Under the pieces are notes generated by a model. It had not been told where the DNA came from, did no database searches, and was given only the letters and a program-made list of their open reading frames with translations. From Escherichia phage Bp7, in sequence record NC_019500.1: DNA of 64,000 nt; one strand, written 5' to 3'. Of this stretch, positions 3,273 through 7,737 are shown piece by piece (the first letter of the stretch is position 1; each line of letters opens with the position of its first letter). The translations under genes and the position numbers were made by a program.

Positions 3273-4421
3273 ATGATTGAATTATATGATAACTTGATGG
3301 CCCTGGTTAAAAACTCGACTAAATCTAAGTTCTTCTTTAAAGACTTTCAGAGTGCGCTAGGAGTCAACTATCGCATCTTTAGTTATAACTATGCCTCGTA
3401 CAGTGATTGGTTGGAAGACGGCGCGCTAGAGGGCCGAGGCATTATGTTTGAAATGGACGAGAACGGTCCAGTACGTATTGCTGCTCGTCCTATGCAAAAG
3501 TTCTTTAACCTTGACGAAAACCCTCTGACCATCGGTCTAGATTTGTCACCAGAAAATATTGACCTCGTAATGGCTAAGGAAGATGGTTCTCTGATTTCTA
3601 CATTCATGGACCGACAGTATCTTTCTGTTAAATCTAAAGGCTCTATCCATTCATCAATGGTGCATGATTCTTTACGGTTCCTTCGTCTCCCTGAGAACGA
3701 GGCTTTTGCCGCACGTCTAGAAGAAATCACCAAAGCTGGGTATACCTGCAACCTTGAATATGTAGCACCTACCAACCGTATCGTTCTGGCTTACCAAGAA
3801 ACAAACCTCATCCTGTTGAACGTTCGTAATAATGAAACAGGTGAATATATTCCGTATGCTGAATTGTTTAAAGATGGTGCCCTGCGTAAGCATTTGGTTG
3901 AAAGCTATGACCTCGCTGAAGGTGATTTCGTAGAAAACATCCGTAAACAAGAAGGTATTGAAGGTTTCATCTTTGTACTGAAAGATGGTACGTTCTTTAA
4001 ACTCAAAACCGCCTGGTACAGTGCACTGCACCATACCAAAGATTCCATTAACAATAACGAACGTTTGTTTGAAGTTGTAGTGGCTGGTGGAACTGATGAC
4101 CTTCGTGGATTGTTCAGTACAGATTCGTTTGCTATCGAGAAAATCGATGCCTTTGAACGTATCCATTTAGATTACTTAGAACAATCATTAGCCTTGTTAG
4201 AAGCAGCGTACTCCCAACTTAAGGGTCGCGACCGTAAGGACTACGCCGTTACTGGTCAACTAATCCTTAAGGACTTTCCAGGGTTGTTCTCTATTCTTAT
4301 GCAGGCGTACGTAGGCGGCATTAATTATGATACGGTCATGGACCAGATTAACTCTGTGTTCTTGAAAAACCATAAAGCCCAAATCCCTGAAAAATATTTG
4401 AAAGAAATTGTGGTAGAGTAG
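3273..4421 (+). CDS. rnlA: RNA ligase 1 (gene 63, tail fiber attachment catalyst)
   Basis: 382 aa; YRIFSYNYASYSDWL...ALEGRGIMFEMD...KEDGSL motifs matching T4 RnlA. Confidence 0.85.
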   Translation: MIELYDNLMALVKNSTKSKFFFKDFQSALGVNYRIFSYNYASYSDWLEDGALEGRGIMFEMDENGPVRIAARPMQKFFNLDENPLTIGLDLSPENIDLVMAKEDGSLISTFMDRQYLSVKSKGSIHSSMVHDSLRFLRLPENEAFAARLEEITKAGYTCNLEYVAPTNRIVLAYQETNLILLNVRNNETGEYIPYAELFKDGALRKHLVESYDLAEGDFVENIRKQEGIEGFIFVLKDGTFFKLKTAWYSALHHTKDSINNNERLFEVVVAGGTDDLRGLFSTDSFAIEKIDAFERIHLDYLEQSLALLEAAYSQLKGRDRKDYAVTGQLILKDFPGLFSILMQAYVGGINYDTVMDQINSVFLKNHKAQIPEKYLKEIVVE

Positions 4422-4449
4422 TTTACATCTCCTCATGATGTGTTAGTAT
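4421..4449 (+). promoter_or_regulatory. Putative early promoter (GTTTACA -35, 17-nt spacer, TAGTAT -10)
   Basis: Motif match; upstream of alc-like ORF. Confidence 0.45.
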
Positions 4450-4479
4450 AGACTTACCAACTAATGAGGAGAAAACAAA

Positions 4480-4980
4480 ATGAATATGCAAATGATTACT
4501 AACGAAATGGTTGTTAAGGCTTTTGGTGACTCTACCGACGGTATCCAAGTTTTTAAAGGTTCTCGTGCAGTAGGTTACCTGACCGATCTTCGTGTTACTT
4601 TAGCTAAAAATGCTAAAAAGAAAATCAAGCAAAAAGAATACTCTACCCGTTACGCTGAAGAAAAGCGTGAAGCCATGCCCGAAGCTGTTAACTCTATGGT
4701 TGAGTTTCTCCGAAACAACCTTTCCAAGTATGATGCTGAGGTGTTCATTAATATTAGCCAACCTAATGTTAAAATCTCAGGCATCACTTTCTATTTGATT
4801 TGTGACCCATTAAGCGACAAGTTTAATCGCCTTGGCATTTCAAGTCCTTACCATACCGCTGAAGAATTGTGTTTTATGTTCGAAACGTACAAAATTCAGT
4901 GCGAAAATCCTAAAACGGTTCTTATTAATTCCCTGTCACGTGATGACATCATCGAGATTATTACCAAATGTCTAAATTAA
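4480..4980 (+). CDS. alc: Alc-like protein (inhibitor of host transcription on cytosine DNA), tentative
   Basis: 166 aa ORF at the position alc occupies in T4 (between 63 and pseT region); size matches T4 Alc (167 aa); identity by synteny and size only. Confidence 0.5.
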   Translation: MNMQMITNEMVVKAFGDSTDGIQVFKGSRAVGYLTDLRVTLAKNAKKKIKQKEYSTRYAEEKREAMPEAVNSMVEFLRNNLSKYDAEVFINISQPNVKISGITFYLICDPLSDKFNRLGISSPYHTAEELCFMFETYKIQCENPKTVLINSLSRDDIIEIITKCLN

Positions 4981-5321
4981 GTATTTACCTTTTAGCTGGA
5001 GCCATTGCAGTAGGTGCTTACGGTTTTATTTCGTATCAATCAAGTCGTATTGATACCCTTACCGAAGAACTGAAAACAACCCAGCAAACAGCTAAACAGA
5101 ACGCTGAAGCTGTAGAGGACCTTCGCGGTCAATACTCTGATATCGAATTCCGTACTACTGAAATGAATGCCCGAATGGATAAAATTAAGGTAGAAAATGA
5201 AAAGCTCCGTAAAGATTCGAAGAAGGCGCACGTGGTGGCAAGTAAGCCAGGACTGGTCGAAAAACAAATCAACAAGTCCTTCGATTCCTTTACAGAAGAC
5301 TTCAGGAGCATTACAGAATGA
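4968..5321 (+). CDS. i-spanin (Rz-like; T4 pseT.3 equivalent)
   Basis: 117 aa; N-terminal TM segment (LSIYLLAGAIAVGAYGFISY) followed by charged coiled-coil; overlaps next ORF. Confidence 0.7.
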   Translation: MSKLSIYLLAGAIAVGAYGFISYQSSRIDTLTEELKTTQQTAKQNAEAVEDLRGQYSDIEFRTTEMNARMDKIKVENEKLRKDSKKAHVVASKPGLVEKQINKSFDSFTEDFRSITE

Positions 5322-5608
5322 TTAAATTATCTGTGGTAGTATTATCTATTGGCTTGTTAGTTGGATGTGCCCAGGATATCCCTGTAGTGCCTAAGCAACA
5401 GCTGCATCCTTCATGGCCACAACCTATTGCCGAACATAATGTTAAATGGCAGGTTAAGGTAATCGATGGTAAAGCTTGGGTTGGAATGCCTTTCGAAGAC
5501 TCCCAAGAACATCGTATTTGGTTGAATGACGTAAAAAGATATGTACAAGACCAGAAATCTATGTTATGTTATTATCGTTCTGGACTAAAAGAGGAGAAGT
5601 GCAAATGA
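5318..5608 (+). CDS. o-spanin lipoprotein (Rz1-like; T4 pseT.2 equivalent)
   Basis: 96 aa; signal peptide with lipobox LLVGC; Pro-rich mature region; adjacent to i-spanin. Confidence 0.7.
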   Translation: MIKLSVVVLSIGLLVGCAQDIPVVPKQQLHPSWPQPIAEHNVKWQVKVIDGKAWVGMPFEDSQEHRIWLNDVKRYVQDQKSMLCYYRSGLKEEKCK

Positions 5609-5711
5609 TTGAGTCTTGTATCGATGGGTCGGATATCATTCTATTTGGCTTTACATGCTTTTGTTTTGGAATCGTGCTTAGCATGTGTATGCATGGTCTT
5701 TTTGGAAAGTA

Positions 5712-5741
5712 GTTTACAAACTCTTGGGAGCAGAGTATAAT
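5712..5741 (+). promoter_or_regulatory. Putative early promoter (GTTTAC, 18 nt, TATAAT), -10 inside hairpin GGAGCA/TGCTCC
   Basis: Motif match. Confidence 0.55.
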
Positions 5742-6984: not shown

Positions 6985-7181
6985 TGAATAATATCGAAAA
7001 GATTTTTCGTACAATCGAAGAAATTGAAAAACGTAAATGCTTTTTCTTCGGCGTATGGCCTTTAACTGATGGACGTATTGGCCTGGATGTGATGGACTAT
7101 AAAGATGAAGACAAGGTCGATGGTGGTATTTTTAAATCCGCTCCTGAACTCCTTGCCTTCTTGGAAGAACATTATGTATAA
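6984..7181 (+). CDS. Hypothetical protein
   Basis: 65 aa ORF, start overlaps pseT stop (translational coupling). Confidence 0.45.
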   Translation: MNNIEKIFRTIEEIEKRKCFFFGVWPLTDGRIGLDVMDYKDEDKVDGGIFKSAPELLAFLEEHYV

Positions 7182-7389
7182 CAAACACCATGAAGTTGAA
7201 GAAGAAGCTTATAAAGAGCTTCAGAAATTGGTAGGTCAGAATATGTCTCCTACCCTCATTAACTCACTAGCGGCCCTTCGTAATGACCTCAATGAACGTT
7301 ACAAAGGCGAGTACTATGTTGAGTTCGTTCCTCTGACTGAAGTCGTTGACCGGTTTATTGTTAACGTGAAGGTCCATACAGTACACTGA
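7177..7389 (+). CDS. Hypothetical protein
   Basis: ORF in cd.x-type small-gene block; internal ATG with RBS chosen. Confidence 0.4.
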   Translation, partial: YNKHHEVEEEAYKELQKLVGQNMSPTLINSLAALRNDLNERYKGEYYVEFVPLTEVVDRFIVNVKVHTVH

Positions 7390-7396
7390 GGTAATT

Positions 7397-7675
7397 ATGT
7401 TCCCTACTTATTCTGAAATTGTTAAAGTAGTTTTTAGTCAGATTGTATCTGATTATCTATACGAAACCGTCGACACGTCGACTGAACTAAAAGTGCACGG
7501 TCGTTTGTCTGCTATTCTGGAAATCATGTTCCCGGATGCAGTTGATGCAATCACTGTTCAACTCACGCCTGGTGCAGCATTTGCAATTGTTCCATTTAAA
7601 ATTGATAACCACATTTTGGCTATTTCATGCAAAATGGACTTCCAGAAACAAACGGTAGTTGTCGAAGCAATTTAA
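7397..7675 (+). CDS. Hypothetical protein
   Basis: 92 aa ORF. Confidence 0.45.
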   Translation: MFPTYSEIVKVVFSQIVSDYLYETVDTSTELKVHGRLSAILEIMFPDAVDAITVQLTPGAAFAIVPFKIDNHILAISCKMDFQKQTVVVEAI

Positions 7676-7676
7676 G

Positions 7677-7706
7677 TGTTTACACTATGGTAGGACTGTG
7701 GTATAG
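7677..7706 (+). promoter_or_regulatory. Putative early promoter (GTTTAC, 18 nt, TATAGT), -10 in loop of hairpin GGTAGGACT/AGTCCTACC
   Basis: Motif match. Confidence 0.5.
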
Positions 7707-7737
7707 TAGTCCTACCGAAACAAATGAGGAAATCGAA

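Follow-up and report, generated by a model that had tools for sequence, protein, structure and literature searches.

Introduction

Promoter-early stem-loop (PeSL) cassettes of T4-type phages were described in RB49 and phi1 (Arbiol et al. 2010, PMC2839356) and extended to PST/T4 and nt-1/KVP40 (Comeau et al. 2014, PMC4122927). 'PeSL-like' elements based on T4 early promoters had been reported at T-even internal-protein loci (Repoila et al. 1994, cited in PMC2839356). Two roles were proposed for these structures, to terminate or attenuate transcription coming from upstream and to provide sites of recombination for the shuffling of modules (PMC2839356), and the promoter consensus given for T4/PST is TTTACW-N17-TAYWAT (PMC4122927). 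JS98/IME08-type phages lie outside the published PeSL analyses. Here we analyzed a 64,000-nucleotide stretch of Escherichia phage Bp7 (NC_019500.1), referred to in its full length as the window, in which four early promoters, designated S1 to S4, have their -10 element surrounded by the arms of an inverted repeat. This is the architecture of the published PeSL cassette. The comparisons described below suggest that these sites are the T-even counterpart of PeSL, that is, early promoter/stem-loop elements whose hairpin forms only on RNA that reads through from upstream.

Another known system resembles one of these sites. In the T4 genes e, soc, 49 and I-TevI, the long RNA coming from upstream folds into a helix that sequesters the Shine-Dalgarno sequence, and a promoter within the hairpin region makes short transcripts that can be translated (PMC3014915). 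The internal promoter of that set is late (TATAAATA), and translation is delayed until late.

Results

Four early promoters with the -10 element enclosed by an inverted repeat

The initial annotation of the window had claimed that several sigma70-like early promoters carry the -10 hexamer within, or flanked by, a perfect inverted repeat. All four repeats exist, at coordinates that differ by 1-5 nt from those first assigned and often with longer stems, and the -10 element lies in the loop at each of S1 to S4 (stems of 6-12 bp). The promoters are indeed of the T4 early, sigma70-like type: all consist of GTTTAC (TTTTAC at S4), a spacer of N17/18 and a -10 element TAnnnT, with a TGn element, and they match the TTTACW-N17-TAYWAT consensus. 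They occupy short intergenic regions and are directly followed by a Shine-Dalgarno sequence and an ATG, found 24-42 nt beyond the promoter at all four sites.

All promoters and hairpins described here are on the plus (+) strand. S1 is located upstream of alc and is formed by the -35 element GTTTAC (4421-4426), a 17-nt spacer with TGn, and the -10 element TAGTAT (4444-4449); the stop codon of rnlA, TAG at 4419-4421, overlaps the -35 element. Its hairpin pairs TCTCCTCAT (4428-4436) with ATGAGGAGA (4464-4472) through 9 bp around a 27-nt loop (dG -16.4, z -4.83, 0/200 shuffles folding as well). The 5′ arm is an anti-Shine-Dalgarno sequence placed in the promoter spacer, and the 3′ arm holds the Shine-Dalgarno sequence of alc, GAGGAG (4466-4471), upstream of the ATG at 4480. 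At S2 (-35 at 5712-5717, -10 TATAAT at 5736-5741) the perfect core of 6 bp is GGAGCA (5727-5732) with TGCTCC (5741-5746), and the extended helix (5722-5732 with 5741-5752) has 11 pairs, including two G·U, and one bulge (dG -14.5, z -2.77, 3/200). At S3 (-35 at 7678-7683, -10 TATAGT at 7702-7707) the -10 element is enclosed by GGTAGGACT (7689-7697) and AGTCCTACC (7708-7716), with 9 bp and a loop of 10 nt (dG -16.0, z -3.19, 1/200). The longest stem, with 12 bp and a loop of 13 nt, is found at S4 (-35 TTTTAC at 11261-11266, -10 TATTAT at 11284-11289), where TTTGGTACAGGT (11267-11278) pairs with ACCTGTACCAAA (11292-11303) (dG -18.6, z -4.96, 0/200). These z-scores were obtained by folding the RNA from the -35 end to the start codon and comparing it with 200 dinucleotide shuffles, and the shuffle tests ruled out a chance origin of the hairpins. 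With a minimum stem of 9 bp and a loop of 3-30, the window as a whole contains 14 perfect inverted repeats, compared to 7.5 ± 2.5 in shuffles, and three of the 14 enclose the -10 element of a GTTTAC promoter, a coincidence for which about 0.02 cases are estimated by chance. No Rfam family matched the 64-kb window at the gathering threshold.

The hairpins are conserved and covary in relatives

The segment 4300-7900 is 93-97% identical to that of Escherichia phages MX01, IME540, QL01, WG01 and IME08. IME08 belongs to Dhakavirus, Tevenvirinae, and on this sequence identity the window is assigned to a JS98/IME08-like T4-type phage (Dhakavirus). Relatives were collected as 57 loci from IMG/VR using PseT as a probe and then an Alc alignment, and T4 was fetched besides; loci are numbered, with L001 being IME08 and L021/L060 being T4 (NC_000866/AF158101). 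Recurrence and conservation in relatives, on which the proposal depended, were both found. T4 shares this architecture at its own orthologues, the promoters that precede alc, cd.2, 30.7 and 30.8. GTTTAC-type promoters with a Shine-Dalgarno sequence and an open reading frame (ORF) downstream were counted in the relatives, and 69 distinct sequences were obtained; in 60 of these, 7 or more base pairs enclose the -10 element. When the -10 element was held fixed and the remainder was shuffled, the first 59 distinct promoters had a median z of -3.3, and 75% were below -2. The stem position also varies among relatives, with spacer-only stems in L001 and L007 and stems over the -35 element in L036, L041 and L055.

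The region upstream of alc was studied by covariation using 28 distinct sequences. A MAFFT alignment placed the group that includes the window one column out of register, and the sequences were realigned with a covariance model. The arms vary by lineage yet stay complementary, the 5′ arm being TCTCCTCAT(G), TCCTCATTTCGTT, TCCTCATTTTGTT, TCTCCATTTGGTT or AACCTCTCATTTT, and the stems of L028 and T4 are near-perfect, with a bulge. Paired cells amounted to 74.6% of this alignment compared to 61.9 ± 1.4 in shuffled ones (0/500 reached the observed value), and the covariation score was 0.335 compared to 0.151 (0/500), while registers slid from the true one gave 0.09-0.18. Changes on both sides were found in 10 of the 13 pairs of the stem.

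Comparisons at the other sites were done with per-sequence folds, ortholog by ortholog, since the register of the helix with respect to the -10 element varies from promoter to promoter in this group (class A, defined below), by as much as about 4 alignment positions; a single consensus structure for this class was rejected for the same reason. The S3 stem, GGTAGGACT/AGTCCTACC, is replaced in the T4 orthologue by GGTAGAGTT/AGCTCTACC, with two double (compensatory) changes and one G·U. In a more distant group, the stem of the S4 orthologue has 13 bp and an unrelated sequence, GCTGATTGAGTGT/ACACTCAATCAGC, and a sister phage has a variant of it with a G·U pair.

Some of the alc-upstream regions have other structures. 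In L036, L041 and L055 (about 1415-1500) there is a G/C-rich hairpin, GGGG..CCCC, with the -35-like sequence GTGTAC in the loop and a T-rich run, CTTTCT, after it. L057 (about 1420-1500) has an 11-bp hairpin, AACCCATTATG/CATAATGGGTT, whose 3′ arm contains the -10-like sequence CATAAT and is followed by TATTCTTTTT. From their sequences, these four appear to be genuine overlaps of terminator and promoter like the PeSLs of the RB49 type. In L051-L054 (about 1440-1500), the most distant relatives encoding Alc (33-35% identity), the repeat TCCAT..ATGGA is located downstream of the -10 element; this hairpin would also form on the promoter's own transcript and would mask GGAG in all transcripts.

The hairpin is predicted to form on read-through RNA

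G·U pairs were about three times as frequent when the hairpins were read on the sense strand (73/838) as on the antisense strand (25/776). In 60 cases the sense hairpin was the more stable one 47 times and the antisense hairpin 13 times, compared to 61:37 in composition-matched shuffles. These results favour selection of the structure on the sense RNA.

Transcription was taken to start at the usual distance of about 7 nt after the -10 element. The predicted starts are A4456 for S1, about 5748 for S2, A7714 for S3 and about 11296 for S4. The promoter orthologous to S3 bears the name Pe133295 in the T4 annotation; if the name is read as the start coordinate, an assumption that fits exactly, position 133295 is an A located 7 nt after the -10 element and is the third-last base of the 3′ arm. 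The S1 start at A4456 is assigned by analogy with Pe133295, which is another site. A literature search for start-site or 3′-end maps found none covering T4. Since the start lies in or after the 3′ arm and the 5′ arm lies in the spacer, which the promoter itself does not transcribe, the own transcript cannot form the hairpin. This geometry contradicts the suggestion of the initial annotation that the inverted repeats provide a stabilising hairpin at transcript 5′ ends, and it predicts that only read-through RNA can fold into the hairpin. Read-through is expected because the terminator scan found no terminator between the upstream genes and S1-S4 and because the upstream stop codon abuts the -35 element at the cassettes.

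The T4 record also carries a note at 133300-133313, 'inverted complement of previously reported sequence; corrects the early promoter Pe133295'. These 14 nt are exactly the loop and the two inner base pairs of the hairpin orthologous to that of S3; the segment between the arms of the inverted repeat was thus once reported flipped.

Two classes of hairpin

The distance from the -10 element to the outer end of the 3′ arm is bimodal, 7-15 nt in one group (class A, n = 27) and at least 20 nt, mostly 20-36, in the other (class B, n = 33). S2, S3 and S4 belong to class A, where the arms hug the TGn/-10 elements, the loops have 8-13 nt, and the tail is A-rich, without a U-tract. Class B is represented by S1, upstream of alc, and by weaker helices at 36336 and 10855; here an anti-Shine-Dalgarno sequence in the spacer pairs with the Shine-Dalgarno sequence of the next gene. 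That sequence is masked (at least 3/4 bases paired) in 26 of the 33 class B promoters.

The effect of this pairing was estimated as the predicted energy needed to open the region from the Shine-Dalgarno sequence to the AUG on the own transcript and on the read-through RNA. The opening cost rose from 1.6 to 9.2 kcal/mol at S1, from 2.5 to 10.6 kcal/mol at T4 alc, from 0.3 to 10.6 kcal/mol at T4 30.8 and from 5.9 to 11.2 kcal/mol at the 36336 promoter. No increase was predicted at S2, S3 and S4, where the ribosome site is equally open on both RNAs.

The tails and loops were compared with those of the genuine terminators of the window (10807-10828, 20069-20092 and 33709-33730 among them). Window terminators have 4-nt loops, and 3 of the 5 checked have 6-7 T in the tail. 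The four promoter hairpins have 1-3 T in the next 9 nt and loops of 8-27 nt, and over both classes of the family the 9 nt that follow the 3′ arm have means of 1.9 T and 5.2 A. None of S1-S4 is listed by the terminator scan of the window, and the candidate of a canonical intrinsic terminator was rejected on this result together with the A-rich tails.

Other promoters in the window and comparison with known systems

The genome-wide search for GTTTAC-type promoters that had been proposed was run on the window and returned eight gene-proximal promoters, six of them within 4.4-19.8 kb. A clear enclosing hairpin was present in five, S1-S4 and 10855, the hairpin at 36336 was imperfect, and RNA folds compared with shuffles gave no enclosing hairpin at 19714 and 32312, so the feature is not universal. 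The 10855 cassette (+; -35 GTGTAC at 10855-10860, -10 TACTAT at 10878-10883), which was absent from the initial annotation, has a weak long-range helix, TCTCCGGT (10862-10869) with ACTGGAGA (10912-10919), with a z of -2.75. This helix touches the Shine-Dalgarno sequence of ORF 10925-11257, and little change in the opening of the ribosome site was predicted, in a calculation that set the -10 end at 10885, not 10883. The 36336 promoter (+; -35 at 36336-36341, -10 TACTAT at 36360-36365) has an imperfect helix, 36350-36360 with 36377-36388 (z -1.30), that masks the Shine-Dalgarno sequence GAGGAG at 36382-36387, upstream of the ATG at 36395.

The cassettes share with the published PeSLs the order of intergenic early promoter, Shine-Dalgarno sequence and start codon, a stem-loop placed between the -35 and -10 elements or over the -10 element (the published elements fall into five positional subclasses, mostly these two) and G-T pairs in the stems. 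Another PeSL feature is an AT-rich region upstream; in the window, the 25 nt upstream of the -35 element are 60-88% AT compared to 60% window-wide, S2 and S3 are not enriched, and the tract is inside the upstream coding sequence. The cassettes also share with the published PeSLs the presence of many copies in plastic early regions, the proximity to indels and gene replacements, and tandem copies that flank single ORFs. Unlike the published PeSLs, the stems in the window are not polyG/polyC and have no U-tract. A further difference concerns the stem position in PST/T4: a figure legend of PMC4122927 shows stem-loops that have an AGNA..TCNT motif and lie 'just upstream of the promoter', whereas the arms found here and at the T4 orthologues flank the -10 element. 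The portions of the PeSL literature available to us make no mention of a class that masks the Shine-Dalgarno sequence or of compensatory covariation across genera. Intrinsic terminators are similar in being stable intergenic RNA hairpins right after a stop codon and differ in the features of tail and loop given above.

The T4 e/soc/49/I-TevI set resembles class B (S1/alc) in the sequestration of the Shine-Dalgarno sequence on RNA from upstream and in internal-promoter transcripts that lack the 5′ strand of the helix. Masking is predicted at S1, where GAGGAG lies wholly within the 3′ arm, and not at S2, S3 and S4. The internal promoter of S1 is an early sigma70-type promoter and not a late one, and translation would be immediate-early only. 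On this model S1 would work like the members of that set without being one of them. No description of an early-promoter version of such a masking hairpin was found in the literature examined, which includes the two 2010 T4 reviews.

Gene shuffling around the cassettes

The cassettes are associated with indels and mosaic boundaries. At 5746-5776 of the window the S2 cassette is fused directly to ORF 5776-6075, with the junction between the Shine-Dalgarno sequence and the ATG. L001, L003 and L005 have another sequence in place of the 5′ half of S3, the S3 stem is found upstream of alc in L039 and L050, and the 3′ half of the 19714 promoter is that of the alc cassette of L006/L027. Two direct repeats of 55 nt (10875-10929 and 11281-11335, +, 95% identical), which are the 3′ halves of two tandem cassettes and lie 406 bp apart, flank the single ORF 10925-11257. 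From its sequence, this pair looks like the substrate proposed for the excision of PeSL mini-circles.

In IME08 and most close relatives the S2 cassette is separated from the ORF 5776-6075 homologue by an extra unannotated ORF (L001 10440-10956). It has 172 aa as listed and about 160 aa if counted from start codons just after the Shine-Dalgarno sequence.

Genes and other features of the window

Gene names in the window were assigned from the IME08 annotation. The T4 gene order is kept on the plus strand (rnlA-alc-pseT.3-pseT.2-...-pseT-cd.x): rnlA (3273-4421) and alc (4480-4980) are followed by pseT.3, pseT.2 and a small ORF, then by ORF 5776-6075, the next gene after S2, pseT (6076-6984), cd.4, cd.3 and ORF 7738-8292, the next gene after S3. 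Beyond it the order continues to 30.8, 30.7 and further, the 30.7 homologue (ORF 11331-11696, +) being the next gene after S4. The region of S1-S4 is the early, plastic part of a T4-type genome.

ORF 5566-5712 encodes a conserved hydrophobic product of 47-48 aa (…FGFTCFCFGIVLSMCMHGLFGK), overlaps the end of pseT.2 and finishes at the S2 -35 element. It has no Pfam match and is unannotated in IME08; its L001 counterpart is at 10267-10410. Outside the early cassettes, nrdB is apparently split, since ORFs 789-1238 and 2348-2827 both match the family of the ribonucleotide reductase small chain, the former at profile positions 58-142 and the latter at 177-271. Between them there is an HNH endonuclease ORF (1382-2188, 268 aa) with strongly folded non-coding flanks and a sub-threshold match to Rfam Intron_gpI at 2033-2273 (34 bits, E 1.3e-6). 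The insert (about 1239-2347) resembles a group I intron that carries an intact homing endonuclease of the I-TevIII kind; nrdB is uninterrupted in IME08. Another segment, of about 260 nt without an ORF (10379-10641), lies between the rIII and 30.9 homologues. The fold of 10370-10645 is very stable (predicted dG -62.8 kcal/mol) and includes a perfect hairpin, TAATGATT-tgcg-AATCATTA, at 10410-10429; no Rfam match was found for the ORF-free segment.

Discussion

The sites described here belong to the known PeSL class and are not a new kind of element. Our preferred reading, to which we assign a probability of roughly 0.68, is that they are T4-type early promoter/stem-loop cassettes, the T-even counterpart of PeSL, whose hairpin exists on read-through RNA only. 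The arrangement can be understood from the space available. The intergenic regions offer about 60-75 nt, in which the UP, -35, TGn and -10 positions are occupied. Only the spacer, for the 5′ arm, and the discriminator/leader, for the 3′ arm, are left free, so the arms flank the TGn/-10 elements and leave them in the loop. A hairpin built in this way would distinguish RNA that reads through from upstream from RNA initiated at the cassette's own promoter.

At class B sites the read-through RNA would be translationally masked and the RNA from the own early promoter would be open. Secondary structure protects GGAG from RegB (PMC3014915); therefore, the pairing in class B would shield GGAG on read-through RNA and leave only the own-promoter RNA exposed to this nuclease. 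At alc, the synthesis of Alc would be restricted to the immediate-early burst. A more ambitious and tentative proposal, which we consider possible but clearly less probable than the reading as a whole, is that class B constitutes an 'early-only' translational gate throughout the subfamily. RNA entering from upstream, delayed-early and middle read-through included, would be locked with its GGAG hidden from RegB, and only the short burst from the own promoter would be translated. Compensatory mutations would have preserved such a gate upstream of alc across Dhakavirus, T4 and phages related more distantly. For class A, about which we are less confident than about class B, the hairpin is most likely a 3′-boundary structure for the upstream cistron on polycistronic RNA; it could block exonucleases, mark a site of processing or pausing, or attenuate transcription. 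The conserved cassettes could double as homology patches for gene shuffling.

The explanation given for PeSLs in the literature is that the stem-loops are terminators or attenuators that stop the upstream polymerase, so that each cassette starts a fresh transcription unit. It is grounded on the finding that the stem-loop of PeSL211/210 of RB49 lowers lacZ as much as rrnB T1 does, from which the authors infer termination (PMC2839356), and the hairpins with T-runs that overlap the promoter in L036, L041, L055 and L057 point in the same direction. The four window hairpins, with their T-poor tails and large loops, do not have this form, and termination does not explain why the class B arm pairs specifically with the Shine-Dalgarno sequence; we consider it unlikely at these sites. 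Less probable still is that the repeats have no function as RNA and serve to promote or mark recombination between cassettes, by mini-circles or template switching, or simply hitch-hike on mobile promoter cassettes. The location of cassettes at indel and mosaic boundaries and the occurrence of the same stem at different loci in different phages would fit this possibility, as would the mini-circle crossovers that Arbiol et al. mapped in or beside the stem-loop (PMC2839356). Yet orthologous sites keep their pairing by compensatory changes while the arm sequences diverge, which argues for selection on pairing in place rather than for the copying of one cassette, and neither the G·U bias of the sense strand nor the targeting of the Shine-Dalgarno sequence is expected for a DNA signal.

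The same strand bias bears on control at the level of DNA, either by extrusion of a cruciform or hairpin that presents the -10 element single-stranded and alters promoter melting, the latter effect having been suggested in the initial annotation, or by a dyad that is the operator of a dimeric regulator, for instance in early-promoter shut-off. The -10 element is always in the loop, and how T4 early promoters are shut off is, according to PMC3014915, not completely understood. A cruciform needs pairing on both strands, and the roughly threefold excess of G·U-type pairs is on the sense strand; extrusion is costly with loops of 8-27 nt and, by reasoning, would destroy the -35/-10 spacing that the polymerase needs. 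The class B 3′ arm, besides, tracks the Shine-Dalgarno sequence and not the promoter. Modulation of promoter melting is thus improbable. A common operator was rejected because the arms are wholly different and unrelated between promoters (GGAGCA, GGTAGGACT, GGTACAGGT, CCGGAAGT and GCTGATTGAGTGT), and we regard DNA-level control in any form as very unlikely. To a hairpin at the 5′ end of the promoter's own transcript that stabilises that transcript we give practically no credence: nothing beyond the presence of an inverted repeat speaks for it, the Pe133295 start of T4 is inside the 3′ arm, and the own transcripts of S1-S4 hold at most that arm.

Several points weigh against the reading of the cassettes as read-through RNA elements. 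The covariation counts upstream of alc come from an alignment fitted to the model structure, which biases them towards it, and from phylogenetically related sequences. Three alc-upstream variants (L034, L047 and L056) have A·C mismatches, and the excess of G·U pairs on the sense strand is accordingly no more than a tendency. The lacZ result with RB49 is on the side of termination, and the conclusion that class A is not a canonical intrinsic terminator rests on the missing U-tract. Three of the eight window promoters have no convincing hairpin, and promoter function therefore does not depend on one. Only 6 nt separate the rnlA stop codon from the S1 5′ arm, and a terminating ribosome could partly melt the stem; this would make S1 a case of translational coupling, in which the terminating ribosome opens part of the stem, rather than of silencing. 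Finally, all functions of the cassettes in vivo are inferred.

What these sites add to the PeSL class is that the arms of T-even cassettes occupy the two free segments of the promoter, that the pairing is maintained across genera by compensatory changes with a sense-strand (RNA) signature, and that there are two geometric classes, one of which is predicted to mask the next ribosome site only on read-through RNA. For annotation and for polycistronic phage constructs, it follows that moving a gene with 'its promoter' also moves half a hairpin. If the proposed role is true, class B would be a simple and portable way to tie translation to the promoter of origin, and it would bear on how T4-type phages end the synthesis of immediate-early proteins such as Alc. 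The early-only gate would then be the reverse of the gate that makes T4 lysozyme, soc, gene 49 and I-TevI late-only, and it would explain at the post-transcriptional level how the synthesis of some early proteins can cease while transcription of their genes goes on.

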